IMG/VR virus record: IMGVR_UViG_2541047759_000001
DNA from: a virus
Taxonomy: Duplodnaviria > Heunggongvirae > Uroviricota > Caudoviricetes
Direction: 5' to 3' (one strand)
DNA: 64,000 nucleotides
Under the pieces are notes generated by a model, which worked only from the letters and a program-made list of their open reading frames with translations, was not told the origin of the DNA and did not search any database. The first letter of the stretch is position 1; every line of letters starts with the position of its first letter. The position numbers were made by a program, and so were the translations under genes. Below are positions 4,331-17,211 of the stretch, piece after piece.

Positions 4331-4898
4331 TATCGCGCCCTCAACAATGAGTTTTGTGATGCGGTGCCTGGTGCCTCCAGGTGACGTTAACCAGTTAACA
4401 ATTAACGCCGGATACAGAGAATCCACCCATAACACTGTTTTTGGTTTTAACTGTTCCGCGTGCGCTTAGCCGCATTCACCGCATCACAAAATTCACTTTA
4501 AAAAGGGCGGCAGAGCAGTCACGGAGTAAAACTGATACCGCCAAACGTCACCAGAAAATTGATAACAGAGGGCGTTGCAGTGGGGTTGTCACTTAAGCGT
4601 ATGGTCAACCTGACAACCCGGTGTCCTCAACGGGGGAAGGAATAACCCCGCCATACTTACCGCCGCGCCATTTCGCGGATTGCCACAACCGGAAGCGCAC
4701 GGTCGACGAAAATTTAACGACAGGCTATCTATGAACCAGCTACCTCGCCGTGCGCTTTCGCGTTATGGTCTGACTTTTCAGGGAAATATCCTTTCAGTAA
4801 ACTGTCAGTGCCGGATGCTCACCCGTGTCCGGCGCACGCACTCCACCTCACCCGTGGAGAACTCCTTAATTACCAACCTTAGCTTCGTTGGTTATCTA

Positions 4899-5117
4899 TT
4901 AACGCGGGTATGTAATCATTCTGGCAATGCTTAATGCCGCTGCTTTTTCCAGCCTGGTGATATCCTGCTCCAGAGCGGACAGATTTTCAGCCTGCTTAGC
5001 TCTGGCTTCATTAGCCCATTTCAGATCCTGCGCTGCATTAATTTTCTGGCGCATCCACTCATAAAGTTCATCATCGGTATAGTCTGGCGCGATGATGACG
5101 GGTTCTCGTTTCTGCAT
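4899..5117 (-). CDS. Hypothetical early-leftward-operon protein
   Basis: 72-aa ORF in leftward operon downstream of the cI-side regulatory region. Confidence 0.5.
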   Translation of the reverse strand: MQKREPVIIAPDYTDDELYEWMRQKINAAQDLKWANEARAKQAENLSALEQDITRLEKAAALSIARMITYPR

Positions 5118-5146
5118 ACTGATTCCTCGCGGTGCTGTTTCGCTTA

Positions 5147-5275
5147 TCAGCCGTTAGATTTTGCCGAACTGGAAAGCGCCTGTTTAAATTCGTTGAAGCT
5201 GTGAGCTTCTTCGCCTTCGGCAAGGCCTTCGAAGTATTCTTCGTAAGCCTTTTCCATGATTGTGTCAAAATCCAT
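5147..5275 (-). CDS. Small acidic hypothetical protein (42 aa)
   Basis: AGGTGAG RBS 5 nt upstream of ATG at 5275, 1 nt after the upstream gene stop; below the 60-aa ORF-track cutoff. Confidence 0.45.
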   Translation of the reverse strand: MDFDTIMEKAYEEYFEGLAEGEEAHSFNEFKQALSSSAKSNG

Positions 5276-5276
5276 A

Positions 5277-5513
5277 TCACTCACCTGAGTTTCTTTCCAG
5301 CCAGCGACGGGCACCATTTTCGGTTTTAAACGTTTTGCTTTTTGTATACGTCATTGCGGTGAAGGTGCCGTCCTGGTTTGGAAACACGCCGTACACCAGA
5401 GATTCGTTGTTGCCAAGATCGATAGTATCCATGCTGACCTCATTTCCCCTTAACGCCGGGGTAGCGGAACAAAAACCTGCTGCATAGTTATTAAAGTTGA
5501 ACCCTGCCGTCAT
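5277..5513 (-). CDS. Hypothetical early-leftward-operon protein
   Basis: 78-aa ORF, first gene of the leftward operon. Confidence 0.5.
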   Translation of the reverse strand: MTAGFNFNNYAAGFCSATPALRGNEVSMDTIDLGNNESLVYGVFPNQDGTFTAMTYTKSKTFKTENGARRWLERNSGE

Positions 5514-5638
5514 GTTCTTACGCCTCGGGCTGGCTACTTAACCCCTGACCACTGCCTGGTAACTCGAAGTATTGCCCTGCATTCTGTAGGATGGGGTGAG
5601 GGAATGAATGAAGTTTAGAAAAACGAACTTTTCAGGTC

Positions 5639-5660
5639 AATGTTTTTTTATCAAAACATT
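5639..5660. promoter_or_regulatory. Putative left operator palindrome AATGTTTT-N6-AAAACATT
   Basis: Perfect 8-bp inverted repeat between the cI 3' end and the leftward operon; same half-site as the palindrome at 6362-6380. Confidence 0.45.
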
Positions 5661-5724
5661 TTAAGCAGGCAGCTGTTAAGCCATCACCACGATGGCATAC
5701 AGTTAATCAAATAGATGAGGTTGG

Positions 5725-6363
5725 TTAAATATCTTGTTGAATTTTAAAGCATACGCCCAATATGCAAGATAGATCATCCAGCATAATTGAAGGGTAGCGA
5801 GGATTCGTGGGGACTAAAAGAATATCCGGCCCTTCTATCTCCAGTTTACGAATGACAGGTGTTGTGGTCCCTTTGGGTAAGGCAAGGACAATATTTCCTG
5901 GTTGTACGGTTCGATCGGGATCAACAAAAACTGTTGAACCATTTGGGATGGAAACTCCCCCACCAGATGTTGACATACTGTCACTCTCTAGAACAACTGC
6001 AAAGGTATTGACCGGGATTTCTCCGACAAGCTGCACACAAGAGGTTATTGAGGAATTTTTCATATAATCACTCCAGCTTGCTGCCTGCTGAAGTGATAGT
6101 AGCGGAACCGTTTTTATCGGCGGTAAAGATAGATCAAGCGAATCACCTGTATTTAACTCTCCTCCATTAAGAAGCCAATTTTCGTTTACTTTCAATATTT
6201 TTGCCAGTGAACTTATGTAACGCGAGGACGGCGCTCCTCCACCGTTCATCCATTGACTTACGGAGCCTTTTGATGCGCCAGTGCCATTGACAAGGTCTTT
6301 GCCTTTCAGGTTTAGCGCATGCATACGTTGGGTTATGCGTTCAGATATAGTTTGCTTGCTCAT
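5725..6363 (-). CDS. cI: CI-like repressor, N-terminal HTH plus C-terminal S24 LexA-like peptidase domain
   Basis: 212 aa; HTH-like 'GASKGSVSQWMNG'; C-terminal region with Ser and Lys consistent with a self-cleaving S24 domain; divergent from cro. Confidence 0.8.
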   Translation of the reverse strand: MSKQTISERITQRMHALNLKGKDLVNGTGASKGSVSQWMNGGGAPSSRYISSLAKILKVNENWLLNGGELNTGDSLDLSLPPIKTVPLLSLQQAASWSDYMKNSSITSCVQLVGEIPVNTFAVVLESDSMSTSGGGVSIPNGSTVFVDPDRTVQPGNIVLALPKGTTTPVIRKLEIEGPDILLVPTNPRYPSIMLDDLSCILGVCFKIQQDI

Positions 6364-6380
6364 GTTTTGATTTTAAAACA
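6362..6380. promoter_or_regulatory. Putative right operator palindrome ATGTTTT-N5-AAAACA overlapping the cI start
   Basis: Inverted repeat sharing half-sites with the 5639-5660 palindrome; lies in the cI-cro divergent intergenic region. Confidence 0.45.
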
Positions 6381-6396
6381 CAGATGGTTTTGTTTC

Positions 6397-6424
6397 TTGA
6401 CTTTCTTTGGTTTTGATTATTAAA
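6397..6424 (+). promoter_or_regulatory. Candidate pR-like promoter for cro
   Basis: TTGACT at 6397-6402 and TATTAA at 6419-6424, 16-bp spacer, about 30 nt upstream of the cro ATG. Confidence 0.35.
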
Positions 6425-6454
6425 CTTTTGACGTTCAGTTTTATGGAGCGACTC

Positions 6455-6697
6455 ATGAAAAAATCAGAAGTATTAGGCTATTTTGGCGGAGTTGTTAAAA
6501 CAGCCGCAGCTCTAGGAACGTCAAAAACCACAGTCAGCATGTGGGGGGAAGAGGTTCCGTGGAAATGGGCGTTGCTAATTCAGGCAGTCACTGCCGGGGC
6601 GCTCAAATATGAGTTACACATACCGACGGTTGTCATTCCCGGTTCTGATCATAATCCGCCTTCTAACCAAGGGGGGATTCATGAAAATCAAGCATGA
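6455..6697 (+). CDS. cro: Cro-like HTH regulator
   Basis: GGAG 6 nt upstream of ATG at 6455; 'GYFGGVVKTAAALGTSKTTVSMW' HTH; divergent from cI. Confidence 0.7.
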   Translation: MKKSEVLGYFGGVVKTAAALGTSKTTVSMWGEEVPWKWALLIQAVTAGALKYELHIPTVVIPGSDHNPPSNQGGIHENQA

Positions 6698-7106
6698 ACA
6701 CATCCGCATGGCGATGAATGCCTGGGCGCATCCGGACGGCGAAAAAGTACCGGCTGCGAAAATTACCAAAGCGTATTTCGAGCTGGGAATGACGTTCCCG
6801 GAACTGTATGACGACAGCCATCCGGAAGCCCTGGCTCGCAATACCCAGAAAATTTTCCGCTGGGTAGAGAAAGACACCCCTGATGCAGTTGAAAAAATTC
6901 AGGCGTTGTTACCAGCGATCGAAAAGGCAATGCCACCTTTGCTGGTGGCCAGAATGCGCAGCCACAGTTCAGCTTATTTTCGGGAGCTGGTGGAGACGCG
7001 GGAGCGACTGGTGAGAGACGCTGATGATTTTGTCGCAGTGGCAATCGCCGGTTTCAATCAGATGAACCGTGGTGGCCCGGCAGGAAATGCTGTGGCAGTA
7101 CATTGA
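6681..7106 (+). CDS. Early regulatory protein, YdaT/CII-position protein
   Basis: 141-aa ORF directly downstream of cro, overlapping its end; function assigned by position only. Confidence 0.5.
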   Translation: MKIKHEHIRMAMNAWAHPDGEKVPAAKITKAYFELGMTFPELYDDSHPEALARNTQKIFRWVEKDTPDAVEKIQALLPAIEKAMPPLLVARMRSHSSAYFRELVETRERLVRDADDFVAVAIAGFNQMNRGGPAGNAVAVH

Positions 7107-7177
7107 CTGACAATAGCCATATCGAATCGCTTCCGGCAACTCGTGAGTAAAAAGATTCGGTATCAGAAGAGGTGAGT

Positions 7178-8248
7178 ATGGCTAACGCCTGGCTCAGATT
7201 ATGGCATGACATGCCAAATGACCCTAAGTGGCGAACAATTGCCAGGGTGTCAGGGCAGCCAATTGCAACAGTGATGGCAGTGTATATCCACCTCCTGGTG
7301 AGCGCGTCACGAAATGTCACGCGAGGTCACATTGATGTCACGACAGAAGATTTGGCAAGTGCGCTCGACGTGACAGAAGAGGTAATTGATTCAATTTTGC
7401 AGACGATGCAGGGGCGGGTACTTGATGGTGATTTAATCACTGGATGGGAAAAACGCCAGGTGCTGAAAGAGGACAACGGCAATATTTCGCAAACCGCAAA
7501 ATCTCCGGCAGAGCGCAAGAGGGCGCAGCGAGAGAGGGAAAGAAAGCGGGAACAAAATGGCGATTGTCACGGCGAGTCACGAAATGTCACGCACATGTCA
7601 CGACGAGTCACGACAGATAAAGATACAGATAAAGATACAGATCAAGAAGATCAAAACACTATGGTCCATGGCGTAAAAAACGCCACGAACCAGGCAGGGG
7701 ATGTTCAGACCGTCACTCCTGGCCAGCCCGCAGGCACGACACCGGAAGCCGATTCAGCGTATGCGCTGAAAGCCGATTCGGGCGCTGTGCAGCAGGTGAT
7801 GACCGCAAGGCAGGAGCAATCACACCAACTTCAGCAGCCTGAAGCCGATTCCGCCATTCAGCGGGAAGCCGATCGGGTAGTCCCGGAAAACACCGGGCAG
7901 CCTGTGGGACGAGTGGATTATCCTGATGTGTTCGAACAGGTCTGGCGGGAATACCCGTTGCGTGCCGGGGCAAACCCGAAGAAATCCGCTTTCAGTGCCT
8001 GGAAAGCCAGATTACGCGAGGGGGTGCCACCAGAGGCCATGCTGGATGGCGTGAGGCGTTACGCAAGATACCTTGCGGCTACCGGGAAAACGGGAACGGA
8101 ATTTGTTCAGCGAGCGACGACGTTTTTTGGACCGGACCGGAATTTTGAAAACCCCTGGCTGCTCCCGGTAAGCGGCACGAACAACCAGCGTTGTGTGAAT
8201 CATATTTCTGAACCGGATAACGAAATTCCGCCGGGCTTCAGGGGGTAA
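7178..8248 (+). CDS. Replication initiator, replisome-organiser type, with internal iterons
   Basis: AGAGGTGAG RBS; N-terminal 'WLRLWHDMPNDPKW' domain; two clusters of GTCACG repeats inside the coding region, as in lambda O. Confidence 0.75.
   Translation: MANAWLRLWHDMPNDPKWRTIARVSGQPIATVMAVYIHLLVSASRNVTRGHIDVTTEDLASALDVTEEVIDSILQTMQGRVLDGDLITGWEKRQVLKEDNGNISQTAKSPAERKRAQRERERKREQNGDCHGESRNVTHMSRRVTTDKDTDKDTDQEDQNTMVHGVKNATNQAGDVQTVTPGQPAGTTPEADSAYALKADSGAVQQVMTARQEQSHQLQQPEADSAIQREADRVVPENTGQPVGRVDYPDVFEQVWREYPLRAGANPKKSAFSAWKARLREGVPPEAMLDGVRRYARYLAATGKTGTEFVQRATTFFGPDRNFENPWLLPVSGTNNQRCVNHISEPDNEIPPGFRG
7306..7650. repeat. Origin-like iteron clusters (GTCACG at about 10-bp spacing) followed by AT-rich GATAAAGATACAG repeats
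   Basis: Cluster 1 at 7306-7345 (4 copies), cluster 2 at 7566-7615 (5 copies), AT-rich repeat at 7616-7650. Confidence 0.65.
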
Positions 8249-10491: not shown

Positions 10492-10647
10492 ATGAAGCAG
10501 CAAAAGGCGATGTTAATCGCCCTGATCGTCATCTGTTTAACCGTCATAGTGACGGCACTGGTAACGAGGAAAGACCTCTGCGAGGTACGAATCCGAACCG
10601 GCCAGACGGAGGTCGCTGTCTTCACAGCTTACGAACCTGAGGAGTAA
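10492..10647 (+). CDS. hok: Hok/Gef family type I toxin
   Basis: 51-aa translation MKQQKAMLIALIVICLTVIVTALVTRKDLCEVRIRTGQTEVAVFTAYEPEE matches the Hok/Gef family; structured leader upstream and terminator downstream. Confidence 0.85.
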   Translation: MKQQKAMLIALIVICLTVIVTALVTRKDLCEVRIRTGQTEVAVFTAYEPEE

Positions 10648-10814: not shown

Positions 10815-11087
10815 ATGGCGCACAAAACCAAATTTCACAATTCTGATACCGACCTTGCCATCCGGCATGAGCGGCGTTCACACGCATTTAAAACCGACTG
10901 GTACCAACACCCACCATGTACTGAAGAACAGGCCGAATGGCTGATTCATTCTTACCGCAGGCGCGGGTTCGAGGTTAAGAAAGCTCTCAGTCTCGACTAT
11001 CGGCACTGGATAATCTCTGTCAGGCTGCCTTATTCCGAACGCCCACCACGTCCGTCCCGCACTTTCCAGCAACGGATCTGGAGGTAA
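10815..11087 (+). CDS. Hypothetical phage protein
   Basis: 90-aa ORF directly upstream of the DUF968 gene. Confidence 0.55.
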   Translation: MAHKTKFHNSDTDLAIRHERRSHAFKTDWYQHPPCTEEQAEWLIHSYRRRGFEVKKALSLDYRHWIISVRLPYSERPPRPSRTFQQRIWR

Positions 11088-11088
11088 C

Positions 11089-12147
11089 GTGCGGGTATTA
11101 CTTAGACCTGTTCTGGTGCCTGAGCTTGGGCTGGTGGTCCTTAAGCCGGGCCGTGAATCCATACAGATATTTCATAATCCTCGAGTGCTGGTGGAGCCGG
11201 AACCGAAAAGCATGTGCGGCCTGCCATCCGGAGTCGTCCCTGCCGTTCGCCAGCCGCTGGCGGAGGATAAATCATTACTGCCATTTTTCAGCAATGAGCG
11301 TGTGATTCGTGCTGCTGGCGGCGCTGGTGCACTGTCTGACTGGCTGTTGCGCCATATTAAATCCTGCCAGTGGCCACACGGTGATTATCACCACAGTGAA
11401 ACCGTCATTCACCGTTATGGTACCGGCGCAATGGTGTTGTGCTGGCACTGCGACAACCAGTTGTGTGACCAGACCTCAGAATCACTTGAGCAACTTGCTC
11501 ACCAAAACTTGTCAGCATGGATGATTGACGTCATCCGTCACGCAATCAGCGGTACGCAGGAGAGGGAGTTATCGCTGGCCGAATTATCCTGGTGGGCGGT
11601 CTGCAATCAGGTGGCTGATGCGCTTCCGGAGTCTGTATTGTGTCGTTCACTGGGATTACCGGTGGAAAAAATCCGCTCCGTATACCGTGAGAGTGACATC
11701 GTACCGGGAGAACAGACTGCCACCAGCATACTGAAGCAGCGCACAAAAAATATTGCGCTGCCACTTCACGTCCACCAGCAACAGCCCCCACTCCAGGAAA
11801 AGACGTTAGTAAGCATCGCCGTTGATCCGGAGTCTCCGGCTCAGTATCTCCAGCGCCAGAAACCACAACGGGAAGAGATGCCTGTATACACGCGCTGGGT
11901 AAAAACGCAGAAATGCATGACGTGCGGTAATCAGGCAGATGATCCGCATCACATCATTGATCATGGCCTGGGAGGTATGGGAACAAAGGCTGATGATTTG
12001 TTTGTTATTCCGCTGTGCCGTAAATGTCATAACGAACTGCACGCCGGGGTAAAAGATTTTGAAGAAAAACACGGCAGCCAGCTGTTGTTGCTGATTCGTT
12101 TTTTAATGCACGCGAGAAATTCGGGTGTCCTGAAGTGGAAAGCATGA
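11089..12147 (+). CDS. DUF968-type phage protein with C-terminal Cys/His cluster
   Basis: 352 aa; C-terminal 'CMTCGN...HHIIDHG...CRKCHNELH' zinc-binding or HNH-like motif; GGAGG RBS with GTG start. Confidence 0.7.
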   Translation: MRVLLRPVLVPELGLVVLKPGRESIQIFHNPRVLVEPEPKSMCGLPSGVVPAVRQPLAEDKSLLPFFSNERVIRAAGGAGALSDWLLRHIKSCQWPHGDYHHSETVIHRYGTGAMVLCWHCDNQLCDQTSESLEQLAHQNLSAWMIDVIRHAISGTQERELSLAELSWWAVCNQVADALPESVLCRSLGLPVEKIRSVYRESDIVPGEQTATSILKQRTKNIALPLHVHQQQPPLQEKTLVSIAVDPESPAQYLQRQKPQREEMPVYTRWVKTQKCMTCGNQADDPHHIIDHGLGGMGTKADDLFVIPLCRKCHNELHAGVKDFEEKHGSQLLLLIRFLMHARNSGVLKWKA

Positions 12148-12510
12148 ATGACTGAACGCATAGAATTTGTTTTGCCTTACCCGCCGACGGTGAATACCTA
12201 CTGGCGACGTCATGGCAATACGTATTTCATCTCGGAGGCCGGAAAGCGTTATCGCCGTGATGTGGCGCTAATTGTTCGCCAGCAGCGGCTGAAATTAAAC
12301 CTGTCCGGAAGGCTGGCGATAAAGGTGATTGCAGAGCCACCGGATAAGCGTCGTCGCGACCTGGACAATATCCTGAAAGCACCGCTGGATGCGCTGACGC
12401 ATGCGGGAGTGTTAATGGACGATGAGCAGTTTGATGAAATCAATATCGTTCGTGGTCAGCCAGTATCTGGTGGACGTCTGGGGGTGAAGATTTACCCCAT
12501 AATGCATTAA
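12148..12510 (+). CDS. rusA: Holliday junction resolvase RusA
   Basis: 120 aa; 'FVLPYPPTVNTYWR' and 'RRDLDN' motifs characteristic of RusA. Confidence 0.85.
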   Translation: MTERIEFVLPYPPTVNTYWRRHGNTYFISEAGKRYRRDVALIVRQQRLKLNLSGRLAIKVIAEPPDKRRRDLDNILKAPLDALTHAGVLMDDEQFDEINIVRGQPVSGGRLGVKIYPIMH

Positions 12511-12524
12511 GAGCAGGTCAAAAA

Positions 12525-13346
12525 ATGAAACTGGAAGATTTACCGAAATACTACTCCCCAAAATCCCCTGGCCTGACCGATGCATCGGCCTCAACGTCAA
12601 AAGATGCGCTGAGTATCACTGATGTGATGGCCGCGCAGGGCATGACACAGAATCGGGCTGAGATGGGTTTTTCTGCGTTCCTGGGGAAAATGGGCATCAG
12701 TATGAATGACAGGGCGCGGGCAACAGAATTACTGGCAGATTATGCACTCAGTCGGTGCGATCGTGTGGCGGCGTTGAGAAAACTTCCGGCAGAAATAAAA
12801 CCGGTAGTGATGCGCATTATGGCTTCGTACGCTTTTGAGGATTATGCCCGCAGCGCAGCGAGTAAAAAGCAGTGCCCTTGTTGCTATGGGGAAAAATTTA
12901 TTGAAAGCGTAGTTTTTACAAACAAGGTCCAGTATCCGGATGGTAAGCCGCCGGTATGGGCAAAGTGTACGAAAGGTGTGTATTCGTCTTACTGGGAAGA
13001 ATGGAAAAAAGTCAGGGAGGTGGTAAAAGTTGCCTGTCCGGAGTGTGGCGGAAAGGGTGAGGTTTCCACCGCCTGTAAGGATTGCCGTGGGCGTGGTGTC
13101 GCCATTCATCGTGAAGAGTCGGTAAAACGTGGTATGCCTGTTATCAGAGACTGCCAGCGTTGTGGTGGTCGTGGCTATGAAAGACTACCATCAACGGAGG
13201 CATTTAATGCTATATGCGAGGTGACAAACCAGATAACACGCGCGTCATGGGAAAAAACAGTTAAGAAATTCTATGATGCGCTGGTGACCCGGTTTGATAT
13301 TGAAGAAGCATGGGCTGAGCGGCAGTTAAAAAAGGTAACTAGGTAA
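12525..13346 (+). CDS. Late gene antiterminator Q-like protein
   Basis: 273 aa with several CxxC zinc-finger pairs; sits immediately upstream of the pR'/tR' unit and tRNAs. Confidence 0.75.
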   Translation: MKLEDLPKYYSPKSPGLTDASASTSKDALSITDVMAAQGMTQNRAEMGFSAFLGKMGISMNDRARATELLADYALSRCDRVAALRKLPAEIKPVVMRIMASYAFEDYARSAASKKQCPCCYGEKFIESVVFTNKVQYPDGKPPVWAKCTKGVYSSYWEEWKKVREVVKVACPECGGKGEVSTACKDCRGRGVAIHREESVKRGMPVIRDCQRCGGRGYERLPSTEAFNAICEVTNQITRASWEKTVKKFYDALVTRFDIEEAWAERQLKKVTR

Positions 13347-13351
13347 CAAGG

Positions 13352-13379
13352 TTGATTTTTCCGGAATCTGTGGTAAATT
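13352..13379 (+). promoter_or_regulatory. Candidate late promoter pR'
   Basis: TTGATT and TAAATT with 16-bp spacer directly after Q; short transcript to the tR' hairpin. Confidence 0.5.
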
Positions 13380-13427
13380 CGTCATAACAATGGGCTTTTT
13401 ATGCCTGACGTTAGAAGAGTTTCTACA

Positions 13428-13455
13428 ACCCGCCGCCGAGCGGGTTTTTTATTGC
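13428..13455 (+). terminator. tR'-like intrinsic terminator
   Basis: ACCCGCCGCCGAGCGGGT hairpin followed by TTTTTTATT. Confidence 0.7.
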
Positions 13456-13489
13456 GGAATTAATTACGGACCGTTATTATTCTGCTCCC

Positions 13490-13565
13490 GGCCCTTTAGC
13501 TCAGTGGTGAGAGCGAGCGACTCATAATCGCCAGGTCGCTGGTTCAAATCCAGCAAGGGCCACCA
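13490..13565 (+). tRNA. ileZ: tRNA with CAU anticodon, tRNA-Ile2 (lysidine) type
   Basis: 76-nt cloverleaf with GGCCCTT/AAGGGCC acceptor stem, CTCATAA anticodon loop, GGTTCAAATCC T-loop, encoded CCA. Confidence 0.85.
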
Positions 13566-13665
13566 TCACAAACCGCCATTAGCTTATCAGGAAGAGCAGA
13601 CGACACGATAACAGGGTTGTTGGTGCGGGGGCGGGTCCCCGATGGCGGTCCATTATCGGTATTCA

Positions 13666-13739
13666 GCGTTGTTAGCTCAGCCGGACAGAGCAATTGCCTT
13701 CTAAGCAATCGGTCACTGGTTCGAATCCAGTACAGCGCG
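13666..13739 (+). tRNA. tRNA-Arg (UCU anticodon), phage-type
   Basis: Acceptor stem with one G-U pair, CTTCTAA anticodon loop, GGTTCGAATCC T-loop; no encoded CCA. Confidence 0.7.
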
Positions 13740-13852
13740 CTATATTCATTCTTCCAGATTCCTTCCGGCAGAGCCTTATACTGAAATATACCTGGCTCAG
13801 GATATTGTTGAAAATATTTTATGTTTGTCAAAAATAAAAGTTCTGTTAAGTA

Positions 13853-14206
13853 TTGATTGAGTGTTTGTTATACGGTCTAATGGTTTTTTCAGCATTAAAT
13901 ATTTATCATTCATATGGTGTGGGTAGAGTGAATATTGATGAGGCGTCGGGGTGTTTCATCCTTAGGCAGCGTATTGATATAGTCAATGCAGGACGAGCAA
14001 AGGCCTTCAGCCGTTTGACAGTTTTGTTCTGTACTCCTGATCGTCTTTCGGGAAGAGACGTTATTATTCTGAATAGTGATGCTATACAGAGGGTTTGCGA
14101 TGAGTTCATGGTTGCTAATTCAGAATTATTTGCTCTTGTTCAGGAGTACAACAGAATAGCCAGTACCTGTGGTATGGATGAACTTCGGATTACTCATCTG
14201 GGGTAG
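13853..14206 (+). CDS. Hypothetical protein in low-GC cargo region (start uncertain, possibly 13880)
   Basis: 117-aa ORF in AT-rich DNA between the tRNAs and the esterase gene. Confidence 0.35.
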   Translation: MIECLLYGLMVFSALNIYHSYGVGRVNIDEASGCFILRQRIDIVNAGRAKAFSRLTVLFCTPDRLSGRDVIILNSDAIQRVCDEFMVANSELFALVQEYNRIASTCGMDELRITHLG

Positions 14207-14653
14207 ATACATATCTGGATTATCACTTGTTACGGTAAAAAGTGATTGCTTACTGTTTTTGTGAGTGGCATTGCAGCAGCCGGATAATGTCAGTGCTGGC
14301 TGACGGTGTGCTGGTGGCGGGTGTGGTGGTTGTTGCTTTCCCGTTGCTGAAAAAGAAAACGCCAGACTGTTAGCCGGGTATCAGTTAGCGGGAGAAATTT
14401 TTAAATACTTCACAATTCAGGCGGTTGACTGTTGTCTGGTTTGCGGGGAGTTTGTTAAAAGAAACTGGCATGGTGAATCCCCCTGTGCGGAGGGGCAATC
14501 AGCGAGTAGGTATATGGGATAATCGCGGATTCAGGTGCTGGTACTGAATTCACCGGGAGGCACCCGGCACCATGCAATGGCACATAGCGCCACTCTCCAG
14601 CCCCTCTCCGGAGGGGCTGTTTATATTGATTTTGTCAGATGTGAGTAAACTCC

Positions 14654-14989
14654 TTATGGACTTTGTTGTTTTAGTCCATAAGGACATATTTGCAGAGTGC
14701 AACGGTTATTAAAGCATTCATTCAATACGTTATCTGTATTTGTAGGACATTCCTGGCTGTTTTTGATTAAATTCCAGAATGTTTTATTGAATGGTGCTAC
14801 GTTGTAAATGGTTACAGGTAGCACTTTGTTATTGAGCATGATACCTGTGTGAGTCAGTGTAAATATACTTTCAGGAGGTAAGAAAGCATCCGATTGATAC
14901 CAGATTATTAATTTTATTTTACTCCATATGACTGAAAAAGATATTCCGCATGATGGCTGGATAACTGTATCAATCACAATCCACTTCAT
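14654..14989 (-). CDS. Hypothetical protein in low-GC cargo region
   Basis: 111-aa ORF; 3' end runs through a 10-bp inverted repeat at 14652-14683, so gene reality is uncertain. Confidence 0.3.
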
Positions 14990-15249
14990 TTAGTTTCCTT
15001 GTTTATGTCTTGCTGGTGATGTTCTGAAAAGTATAAATGATATTTTTGAATGTAAACCATAGAGCAGAATTATTTTTCTGATGTTGTTTATTGTTTATTT
15101 AAATGCAGGGTGGTTTATATCTCGTCTTGTAGTTTATCCATGCATATCTGCTTGATGATGAGGTTTTTATTTAAGGTATGGTTTTGTGTTTTTTCTGTAT
15201 TACATGTCAGGTATTTTAAAGAATTATTTTTCAGATGGTGGAAAGAACC

Positions 15250-17211
15250 ATGGCATTTAAACACTATGATGTTGTCAGGGCGGCATCGCCGTCAGACCTT
15301 GCGAAACGACTGACACAAAAACTGAAGGAGGGGTGGCAGCCATTTGGCAGTCCGGTGGCCATCACGCCTTATACCCTGATGCAGGCCATTGCGGCGGAAG
15401 GTGATGTCACCACACCTGTGGTGGTGAAGCCGTCGGATGGAGAAGGCGCAGTTATCAGCACCACCAGCAACCCGGAGTATTACTTTGTTGTTGCCCTGGC
15501 CGGGCAGTCAAACGGTATGGCGTATGGTGAAGGGCTTCCGCTGCCGGAGACATATGACCGTCCGGACCCGCGTATTAAACAGCTGGCGCGTCGCAGCACT
15601 GTCACGCCGGGTGGTGCGTTCTGTAACTACAATGACATTATTCCTGCGGACCACTGCCTGCATGATGTTCAGGATTTGAGTAAGTTTTCACACCCGAAAG
15701 CCAGTGCAGCTCAGTATGGATGCGTGGGGCAGGGATTACATATCGCGAAGAAATTGTTGCCGTTTATTCCGGCGAATGCCGGTATTCTTCTGGTTCCGTG
15801 CTGCCGTGGTGGTTCTGCATTTTTGGCGGGCGATGAAGGTACCTTCAGCGAATCCACCGGCGCAAGCGAGACCTCGGCACGCTGGGGTGTAGATAAGCCA
15901 CTGTACAAGGACCTGCTTACCCGTACTCAGGCCGCACTGAAGGCCAACCCTAAAAATATTCTGCTTGCAGTGGTCTGGATGCAGGGCGAGTTTGATTTGA
16001 AACAGGGTGCATACGCCACCCAGCCGGGGCTGTTTGATTCCATGGTGGAAAAATATCGTTCTGACCTGTCGGAATTCGGAGGTCAGTGTCTCGGGGGCTC
16101 TCCGTCATCGGTTCCCTGGATTTGTGGCGACACGACCTACTACTGGAAGCAGACTTATTCTTCGCAATACGATGCGGTGTATGGTGCATACAAGACGAAA
16201 TCCGCAAAAAAAATCTTCTTTGTGCCGTTTATGACGGATGAAAACGGGCGAAATGTGGGTACCAACGAGCCGTCAGAAGATCCGGATGTTGCGGATATTG
16301 GGTATTACGGAGCCGGTGGTCGAACGGACGCCAAAACCTGGACGACGGCTGACCGTAAAACGCATTTTGGATCATGGGCACGTCGTGGGATTATTTCCGA
16401 CCGTCTGGCAACGGCGATTCTTGTGCATGCCGGGAGAAACGCTGAATTCATTACCGGAAAACAGCCTGATACGGTGAAGCCCACCGGACCTTCCGGTGAA
16501 GGTACGGAGAGAGAGCCGGAAGCCCCGGTCAGTAACCGAACCCTGATGAGTCTGCTGGCGTCCGGCGAAGACCTGGCATCACAGGGCTGGCGCTATTATC
16601 ACAAACCGGCGAGCGGAGACAATGTTAACAAAAACATTGCTGAAGCGGTGGTCAGTGATGCGGGGGCTACGGGAGGTAAGGCCCTGCAACTGAATAAACC
16701 GGAAAACCACATCTGGTTTCTGGAGCATGATGCAGCCGGACAGGGAGTGGAGTTACTGAAGAAGGGGGGACGTGTGAGCGTACGGTTTAAGTTGCCGGGT
16801 TCACTGGTGCCGAATCAGTTTGCCCTGGGCATTTACTGGCAGTTGTCGTCCCTGCCGGAGGGAGTGACGCTGGCAGAGGAAGGCAACGACATGCTGATGT
16901 CCTTCTTTCTGCAGACGGATGCGACGAACCTGAACGCGATGCACCACAAGAAGCCGAATGCGAAGCTGGAAACGTTCGGGGTCTTTGATAACGGATGGCA
17001 CACACTGGCTTTTGAGTTTGCCGGAAACAACAGCATTCAGGTGACGCCGGTACTGGATGAGAAACGGGGGACGCCGTTCACACTGGTGAAATCTCCGGCA
17101 TCAGGGGCGGCGGACAAACTGCAACTGACAGGCATATCAAAGGCGGCGACATATACGCTGCTGATTGACAGTGTGAAGGTGGAAGTGAACAACGCGGACA
17201 TCGCGGCATGA
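15250..17211 (+). CDS. Phage NanS-p-like protein: N-terminal DUF1737 plus SGNH-type esterase domain
   Basis: 654 aa; N-terminus 'MAFKHYDVVRAASPSDLAKRL...EGWQPFGSP' as in Stx-phage NanS-p esterases. Confidence 0.75.
   Translation: MAFKHYDVVRAASPSDLAKRLTQKLKEGWQPFGSPVAITPYTLMQAIAAEGDVTTPVVVKPSDGEGAVISTTSNPEYYFVVALAGQSNGMAYGEGLPLPETYDRPDPRIKQLARRSTVTPGGAFCNYNDIIPADHCLHDVQDLSKFSHPKASAAQYGCVGQGLHIAKKLLPFIPANAGILLVPCCRGGSAFLAGDEGTFSESTGASETSARWGVDKPLYKDLLTRTQAALKANPKNILLAVVWMQGEFDLKQGAYATQPGLFDSMVEKYRSDLSEFGGQCLGGSPSSVPWICGDTTYYWKQTYSSQYDAVYGAYKTKSAKKIFFVPFMTDENGRNVGTNEPSEDPDVADIGYYGAGGRTDAKTWTTADRKTHFGSWARRGIISDRLATAILVHAGRNAEFITGKQPDTVKPTGPSGEGTEREPEAPVSNRTLMSLLASGEDLASQGWRYYHKPASGDNVNKNIAEAVVSDAGATGGKALQLNKPENHIWFLEHDAAGQGVELLKKGGRVSVRFKLPGSLVPNQFALGIYWQLSSLPEGVTLAEEGNDMLMSFFLQTDATNLNAMHHKKPNAKLETFGVFDNGWHTLAFEFAGNNSIQVTPVLDEKRGTPFTLVKSPASGAADKLQLTGISKAATYTLLIDSVKVEVNNADIAA

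Follow-up and report, generated by a model that had tools for sequence, protein, structure and literature searches.

IraL, known from uropathogenic E. coli CFT073 and from Shigella sonnei, is an anti-adaptor of RssB and stabilises RpoS during exponential growth (Hryckowian et al. 2014, PMC4045071). For the CFT073 allele, binding to RssB and a longer half-life of sigma-S were demonstrated, the transcription start was mapped by 5' RACE, a stretch of 100 nt upstream of the gene was used for complementation, and the IraL-RssB binding was reported to be somewhat unlike that of IraM (PMC4045071). The structure of IraM with RssB and its mechanism have been described separately (PMC10844676). Published data further indicate that iraL mRNA or IraL protein is up in a fur mutant and upon a shift to 37 C.

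The second system of relevance is the late region of Stx phages. In Stx2 phages, the small RNA STnc100 comes directly after stx2AB; in phage 933W, 75 nt separate it from stx2B, and AsxR lies beyond it on the minus strand (PMC12370729). The genome of EDL933 contains 11 copies of STnc100, several of which are transcribed (PMC5331693), and STnc100 has lately been linked to PasD, a small RNA of EPEC, in a preprint (bioRxiv 10.64898/2026.05.13.724894).

The window analysed here is a 64,000-nt stretch of DNA from a tailed phage. An earlier note on it had pointed to a segment at 13750-15235 (taken here as 13741-15234), which is flanked by phage tRNAs and a NanS-p-like esterase, as low-GC cargo in a layout of the Stx-phage type lacking stx genes. 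That description holds, and the gene order matches that of 933W. The elements that frame the segment are as follows.

12525-13346, plus strand: Q antiterminator (Pfam PF03589 Antiterm, E 6e-55; "antitermination protein" in a 100%-identical record)
13352-13379, plus strand: candidate pR', TTGATT-16-TGgTAAATT, read from the sequence by eye
13427-13446 and the T-run that follows, plus strand: hairpin of the intrinsic terminator tR', by terminator prediction; the pR'/tR' region spans 13352-13453
13452-13480, plus strand: homologue of the putative 933W tRNA promoter pT, by similarity to 933W, preceding the tRNAs
13490-13565, plus strand: tRNA-Ile2 (CAT), from ARAGORN (Met/Ile2 by anticodon) and Rfam; tRNA-Ile in identical RefSeq records
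13666-13740, plus strand: tRNA-Arg (TCT), from ARAGORN and Rfam
15235/15250-17211, plus strand: NanS-p-like SASA esterase (Pfam DUF1737, SASA and DUF6645; 653/658 aa, depending on the start)

The Q antiterminator is the upstream boundary of the late region and the esterase is the downstream boundary of the cargo slot; genes for DUF1378, DUF826, a class II holin and a lysozyme lie 3' of the esterase. The tRNA region, including pT, is 93% identical to the ileZ/argO region of 933W. The stxA and stxB genes that mark an Stx-converting phage between the tRNAs and the esterase are absent, and tblastn of Stx2A and Stx2B against the whole 64-kb window gave zero matches. StxS of Stx phages also raises RpoS. 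The pR'-tR' transcript was considered as an StxS-like RNA and rejected, because similarity between the pR'-tR' region and the StxS region of 933W is limited to 24 nt of the terminator.

Positions 1-21973 of the window are 99.95% identical to the prophage of MCJCHV-1, and the identity is 97% beyond 21973. The MCJCHV-1 prophage is inserted between potB and potC. The CFT073 prophage has the identical layout, and the 'potB island' of that strain is likewise a lambdoid prophage of this type, extending from int/xis through the tail fibres. Identity of 13741-15300 to the CFT073 iraL locus is ~98-99% (mean column identity 99%). Copies of the whole 1494-bp segment with 100% identity are present in many extraintestinal E. 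coli genomes, and some portion of it was found in 2861 of 5426 complete genomes. RefSeq labels within the segment are 'anti-adapter protein IraM', 'DUF3927 family protein' and one pseudogene fragment. We consider it very probable that the segment is the accessory ('moron') region of a potB/potC lambdoid prophage of the CFT073 'potB island' lineage; the identity, architecture, conservation and assortment of its parts, which are listed below, were observed directly.

13928-14206, plus strand: conserved core of ORF1, 92 aa from a GTG (phrog_2873, E 7e-70)
14242-14373, plus strand: DUF3927/TciB-like ORF, 43 aa from a GTG (Pfam PF13064, 95.6 bits with a gathering score of 25, E 2e-27; phrog_1470)
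14432-14461, plus strand: promoter-like sequence of STnc100, TTGTCT-18-TGtTAAAAG, conserved in a nine-copy alignment
14439-14628, plus strand: Rfam match to the STnc100-family small RNA (RF02076, 132.4 bits with a gathering score of 47); the unit spans 14432-14628
14598-14619 and the T-run that follows, plus strand: intrinsic terminator of STnc100, by terminator prediction
14619-15248, no strand assigned: iraL cassette, delimited by homology breakpoints in blastn against the 'empty' loci L064 and L023
14651-14684, minus strand: perfect 12-bp hairpin over the iraL stop codon, from repeat search and fold
14654-14989, minus strand: iraL, RssB anti-adaptor of the IraM/IraL family, 111 aa, by homology and family model
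15022, minus strand: transcription start of the iraL promoter, with a -10 TATACT at 15030-15035 and a -35-like TTTACA at 15051-15056, from matching the CFT073 5' RACE sequence

The main gene of the segment is 14654-14989. Its product is identical to CFT073 IraL (c1429) in 110 of 111 residues (99%) and shares 63% identity with K-12 IraM. The NCBIfam model for IraM, NF007393, matches it over the full length with 162.4 bits against a cutoff of 121, and PDB 8TWD (IraM) is matched with an E value of 2e-32. On this homology the ORF is IraL, an already-characterised gene at a known locus. The only difference from CFT073 is alanine at position 65 in place of valine; K-12 IraM likewise has Ala65. Residue 65 adjoins the IraM strand that contacts RssB (I61-I64). 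The contacts of IraM beta6 with the RssB linker, I61, Y62, H63 and I64, correspond to I61, Y62, N63 and V64 both here and in CFT073 IraL, so that two of the positions are identical and one is conservative.

The start sequence determined by RACE in CFT073 (PMC4045071) maps to the minus strand of the window at 15022. From -100 to +1, the upstream region differs from that of CFT073 by a single substitution, at position -1, and the -10 element is identical; iraL, judged by this match, retains the mapped sigma-70 promoter of CFT073. The gene shows both marks of the IraL subtype, namely a sigma-70 promoter and start site of the iraL type upstream and location in a potB/potC prophage, the latter via the 99.95%-identical record. 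It also has the features of a moron: its own promoter, a GC content of 34% against 51%, a 3' hairpin, and presence/absence polymorphism with sharp breakpoints. The 12-bp hairpin, which lacks a clear U-tract, could possibly act as a weak terminator or as a stabiliser of the iraL transcript.

The earlier note had given correct coordinates for three ORFs without mentioning the minus-strand orientation of 14654-14989, and had supposed the cargo to be driven by the late promoter. As the gene is antisense to the late operon and possesses its own sigma-70 promoter, iraL is not late-promoter-driven; the candidates for late expression are ORF1 and the DUF3927 remnant, which alone share the orientation of the late transcript. 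The expectation of toxin-related or fitness-related cargo is borne out in its second part, as the main gene is fitness-related, whereas toxin-like content was not found.

In the most probable reading, the accessory region of a potB/potC prophage, the right-hand cassette at 14619-15248 would have iraL read leftward and constitutively from its own sigma-70 promoter. Published work on the 99%-identical allele established the binding to RssB, the stabilisation of RpoS and the transcription start (PMC4045071), and by analogy IraL, like IraM, would bind the adaptor RssB in the lysogen. With RssB held by IraL, it would be unable to deliver sigma-S (RpoS) to ClpXP, and RpoS would be stabilised even in exponential growth, leading to higher general stress resistance. 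The element at 14439-14628 would be a self-contained small-RNA gene with promoter-like elements and a terminator of its own. The left-hand cassette, from 13741 to ~14397, would comprise ORF1 and the rearranged TciB/DUF3927 remnant (TciB'), co-oriented with the late transcript. Expression of iraL in this prophage and translation of ORF1 are presumed, and ORF1 and TciB' could be expressed from transcripts that start at the homologue of the tRNA promoter (13452-13480) and read through, or by Q-modified transcription from pR'. Late transcription would then have to cross the STnc100 terminator and continue antisense through iraL, and lower expression of iraL would be expected in lytic growth.

STnc100 occupies the middle of the segment. 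The Rfam match is full length, covering model positions 1-206, and the predicted fold has an energy of -69.5 kcal/mol. Alignment of nine copies reveals that the invariant 5' block GCATGGTG (14468) pairs with the likewise invariant CACCATGC (14568), while the centre is variable. The conserved upstream sequence is a putative promoter. A pseudo-CDS that PGAP places on the minus strand at 14458-14583 falls inside STnc100 and is regarded as spurious.

Upstream of STnc100 lies the DUF3927 ORF. The earlier note had reported a 28-codon hydrophobic ORF with a Chi octamer at 14287-14373; both are present, but the ORF is the C-terminal part of the 43-aa DUF3927 ORF. Canonical DUF3927/TciB is a 50-aa protein with two hydrophobic segments, encoded 3' of a TerB-like 'tellurite/colicin resistance' gene. 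The copy in the window departs from this architecture: the GTG start and the second hydrophobic segment are kept, whereas out-of-frame sequence produced by indels replaces the first segment, and a TerB-like TciA gene was not found in the window. From its sequence, the rearranged copy may be a remnant. A literature search on TciB/DUF3927 returned only unrelated papers.

The Chi octamer GCTGGTGG at 14310-14317, inside the DUF3927 ORF, is unremarkable, since the window carries 24 of them, about 1 per 2.7 kb. The GC content of 13741-15234 is 39.2% compared with 51.0% for the window, which agrees with the low GC noted earlier, and it is unevenly spread. ORF1 (41%), iraL (34%) and the spacer between iraL and the esterase (29.6%) account for the low values, while the middle of the segment, consisting of DUF3927 (51.5%) and STnc100 (55%), lies at 51-55%. 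The inverted repeats mentioned in the earlier note are real and enriched, and much of this content belongs to STnc100, the strongest non-coding feature of the segment, which had been overlooked. Four perfect inverted repeats whose arms measure 9 nt or more were observed against 0.36 +/- 0.59 in 200 dinucleotide shuffles; they coincide with the STnc100 terminator, with the 12-bp hairpin at the 3' end of iraL, and with hairpins inside ORF1 and beyond it.

ORF1 remains without a family in Pfam or NCBIfam, both of which gave zero matches. Of the two ORFs that had been called unrecognised, it is thus the one to which the description still applies. The mechanical ORF at 13853-14206 starts with TTG at 13853 and encodes 117 aa. 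Homologues of 91-95 aa with 22-63% identity have their start at the position of GTG 13928. An exhaustive profile search recovered 21 relatives, among them proteins of this length with 22-40% identity, which begin at residue 23-26 of the window ORF. In the 63%-identical homologue, AGGAG is located four bases ahead of the GTG equivalent to 13928, while the Shine-Dalgarno sequence is weak here, with GTGGG at the position of AGGAG. Comparison with a 56%-identical homologue gives a dN/dS of 0.35, and substitutions by codon position (35/33/54) favour the third. The AF2 model of the 92-aa core (pLDDT 89) consists of two long antiparallel helices with the conserved loop FCTPDR.SG between them. Profile and structure searches, which the earlier note had proposed for both ORFs, identified IraL in one case and for ORF1 led to phrog_2873, with only generic hairpins among the structures. 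ORF1 was found in 1185 of 5426 complete E. coli genomes. It is not called by the NCBI pipeline, and of 12 records listed from all parts of the ranking, 11 have nothing annotated under the match. ORF1 looks like a real gene, with a helical-hairpin protein as its putative product.

These properties bear on the proposal that the segment holds unrecognised toxin-like cargo, expressed like stxAB from the Q-antiterminated late promoter and released at lysis. The slot is indeed that of stxAB in 933W, both ORF1 and the DUF3927 ORF point in the direction of the late operon, and terminator prediction gave none between the tRNAs and ORF1. For 14654-14989 the proposal is refuted, however, since this ORF is IraL, which is read from the opposite strand and has a promoter of its own. 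The ORF1 core is a predicted 92-aa helical hairpin in which a hydrophobic segment was not seen on inspection, ORF1 matches zero toxin families in Pfam, NCBIfam, PADLOC and PDB, and the window lacks an Stx homologue. We regard toxin cargo as very improbable.

Decay of the segment into non-functional prophage DNA, with ORFs kept by chance, appears equally improbable. In favour of decay, the DUF3927 copy has a scrambled 5' end, the adjoining esterase, intact here, is frameshifted in MCJCHV-1 and truncated in CFT073, and the pseudogene fragment called by PGAP lies within STnc100. Against this, 1446 of 5426 complete genomes carry an intact iraL together with its promoter, at 95-100% identity, and the gene works in both CFT073 and S. 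sonnei. The dN/dS of ORF1 indicates purifying selection, its full-length homologues extend down to 22% identity, and STnc100 copies are transcribed in EHEC.

The arrangement of cargo was compared across viral contigs. At least 120 IMG/VR contigs that share the invariant 5' block of STnc100 were mapped with reference proteins and STnc100 copies, giving 139 mapped copies; the sample is biased to one 18-mer, and the counts below are illustrative. In the contigs listed, the backbone is Q, (methyltransferase), tRNAs, [cargo A], STnc100, [cargo B], esterase, holin and lysozyme. The upstream position, cargo A, is occupied among the contigs listed by ORF1+TciB' at 19 STnc100 copies, TciA+TciB at 19, another STnc100 at 17, an AraC-like regulator at 7 and Stx2AB at 6, and is empty at 24. 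Downstream, in the same contigs, the esterase follows directly at 50 copies, IraL on the minus strand at 29, another STnc100 at 17 and TolA-like genes at 9. Ahead of IraL, the listed contigs carry ORF1+TciB' (12), nothing (5), another STnc100 (3), TciA (2) or stx2AB (1). The IraL-family gene behind stx2AB, in that one listed contig, is a third variant with 73% identity to IraL and 65% to IraM. ORF1+TciB' in turn precedes TolA-like genes in 6 cases among the contigs listed, in addition to the 12 with IraL. The locus comparison with Stx and non-Stx prophages that had been suggested reveals, in the contigs listed, swaps of cargo on both sides of STnc100.

The spacings are fixed: 98 nt separate TciB' from STnc100, 88 nt STnc100 from iraL, and 261 nt iraL from the esterase. 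In loci devoid of iraL, homology ends at the STnc100 terminator (14618) and resumes at the esterase start (15249), with an unrelated spacer of ~232 bp between the two. Matches in the phage database likewise start and stop at the STnc100 blocks. The varied pairings together with these breakpoints indicate that the flagged 1.5 kb consists of two independently assorting cassettes joined at STnc100.

The distribution of ORF1 and TciB' also allows a reading that is compatible with the moron interpretation of iraL. The two could be late accessory genes, remnants of a conserved cluster ORF1-TciA(TerB-like)-TciB that precedes the lysis genes, with a role in lytic growth, for example in the envelope, in lysis-related processes or in exclusion, rather than conversion cargo. 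Distant homologues of ORF1 (39% and 63% identity) are located downstream of Q in the order ORF1, TerB-like gene, DUF3927 and holin, the TciA-TciB-holin arrangement is common in E. coli prophages, and ORF1+TciB' is on the late strand in every contig listed. In this copy, the cluster is nevertheless incomplete, as TciA is missing and TciB is rearranged, and the ribosome-binding site of ORF1 is weak. A lytic role is a substantial possibility that we place somewhat below even. We also note that a distant ORF1 homologue, used as a tblastn query on the phage collection, matched mEp460 only, and that a related-locus search from the close ORF1 alignment returned E. coli only.

A wider, more tentative view, to which we give a little less credence than to a lytic role, sees in STnc100 the constant junction between two slots at which lambdoid late regions exchange cargo, with the raising of RpoS as a recurrent payload and ORF1 as a widespread phage gene, systematically left unannotated, with its own function. 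Homologous recombination in the conserved STnc100 blocks may shuffle upstream and downstream cargo independently. The upstream options may include stx2AB, ORF1+TciB', TciA+TciB and the AraC-like regulator, and the downstream options iraL, the IraM-like variant, TolA-like genes, AsxR or nothing.

IraL, STnc100 and DUF3927 have all been described previously, and the novelty is accordingly low. The iraL part is ordinary, as IraL is a published fitness factor that keeps RpoS high during growth of extraintestinal E. coli. The analysis adds that iraL occupies the stx slot of a lambdoid prophage as a moron, that this slot is in fact two slots flanking the STnc100 small RNA, that an IraM-family gene can accompany stx2 in the same slot (one listed contig), and that RefSeq annotation lacks a conserved 92-aa gene (11/12 listed records) which about one-fifth of complete E. 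coli genomes carry. These points bear on the tuning of the host stress response by prophages and on annotation quality, rather than on a new kind of biology.

The closest known system is the CFT073 iraL locus, which shares with the window the promoter and start-site sequence, the flanking STnc100, DUF3927 and ORF1, and the insertion at potB/potC. It differs by three substitutions in and around the 5' UTR, and the CFT073 prophage carries an IS200 and a third tRNA, both absent here. K-12 IraM (b1160; PDB 8TWD) shares with IraL the family, the PmrD-like fold by homology, and the target RssB. The similarity of iraM to iraL ends at the coding region, and the flanks are dissimilar; PhoP/low-Mg2+ control of iraM is therefore not expected here, in agreement with the differing regulation reported for the two genes. 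K-12 iraM adjoins e14, whereas iraL is located in the late region of a lambdoid prophage and IraL acts in exponential phase. With the STnc100/PasD family, the copy in the window shares the conserved 5' stem-loop, the conserved CACCGGGAGGCACCCGGCACCATGC block, the terminator and the place upstream of a sialate esterase; its central region is peculiar to this variant, with the motif TATGGGATA in common with one EDL933 copy. Phage 933W has the same order, Q, pR', tR', ileZ/argN/argO, stx2AB, SASA esterase and holin, and the backbone common to it, Stx phages and the window is Q, pR'/tR', tRNAs, cargo, STnc100, SASA esterase and holin. Upstream of STnc100, 933W carries stx2AB where ORF1+TciB' is found here, and downstream, on the minus strand, the AsxR small RNA of 933W stands in the place of iraL.

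Conservation and purifying selection suggest that the reading frame ORF1 is a genuine gene of the AT-rich cargo, and a search of 5426 complete E. coli genomes located it in 1185 of them. The features of the window that are considered here are as follows.

10492-10647: gene for a 51-aa type I toxin of the HokD type, early-right region
13566-13665: spacer between both tRNA genes
13853-14206 (core 13928-14206), plus strand: ORF1, family phrog_2873, conserved and under purifying selection
14458-14583, minus strand: “incomplete hypothetical protein” pseudogene of RefSeq records
14651-14684: perfect 12-bp hairpin enclosing the iraL stop codon
15235-17211: NanS-p-like esterase, intact ORF, 653/658 aa

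In 11 of 12 records listed across the ranking, an annotated feature is absent under the ORF1 match; PGAP appears to leave this gene out systematically. The RefSeq pseudogene lies wholly within the small RNA STnc100, on the opposite strand, and this call is probably spurious. The esterase is intact in the window but annotated as frameshifted in MCJCHV-1, whose record is 99.95% identical to the window over 1-21973, which takes in the esterase; in CFT073, only a DUF1737 fragment of the esterase is present.

The hairpin at the 3′ end of iraL codes for QQSP, the four C-terminal residues that IraL possesses in addition to those of IraM, and it may serve as a terminator or a 3′ stabiliser. Both ends of the tRNA spacer align to the ileZ-argN-argO cluster of the Stx2 phage 933W, with the middle of argN missing, and complementary ends are kept (CCGCCAT...ATGGCGG), as in a degenerate third tRNA. 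ARAGORN called no tRNA in this spacer.

Two further loci bear on the STnc100 copies and on the IraM family.

4500-7260, prophage of E. coli STEC1585: four STnc100 copies in a single late region
10884-12745, Stx2-encoding viral contig IMGVR_UViG_2660238135_000004: stx2AB, STnc100 and an IraM-family gene

Two STnc100 copies occur in phage 813R8. Those of STEC1585 set apart a TolA-like gene, an AraC-like regulator together with a homologue of ORF1 that lacks annotation, and the esterase. The variant in the window contains TATGGGATA at 14513-14521, which is given as the Shine-Dalgarno-like motif of STnc100_10, the EDL933 copy with the highest ribosome coverage among STnc100 copies in RIBOseq (PMC5331693). 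On this ground, translation of some STnc100 copies is conceivable.

The HokD-type gene belongs to the same prophage as iraL, and in the related CFT073 prophage a match to the sok antitoxin RNA adjoins the HokD-type gene. In the Stx2-encoding contig, the IraM-family gene (107 aa, minus strand) directly follows stx2AB and STnc100. Its product is 73% identical to IraL as against 65% to K-12 IraM, and thus represents a third, Shiga toxin-linked variant of the IraM family in the same slot.
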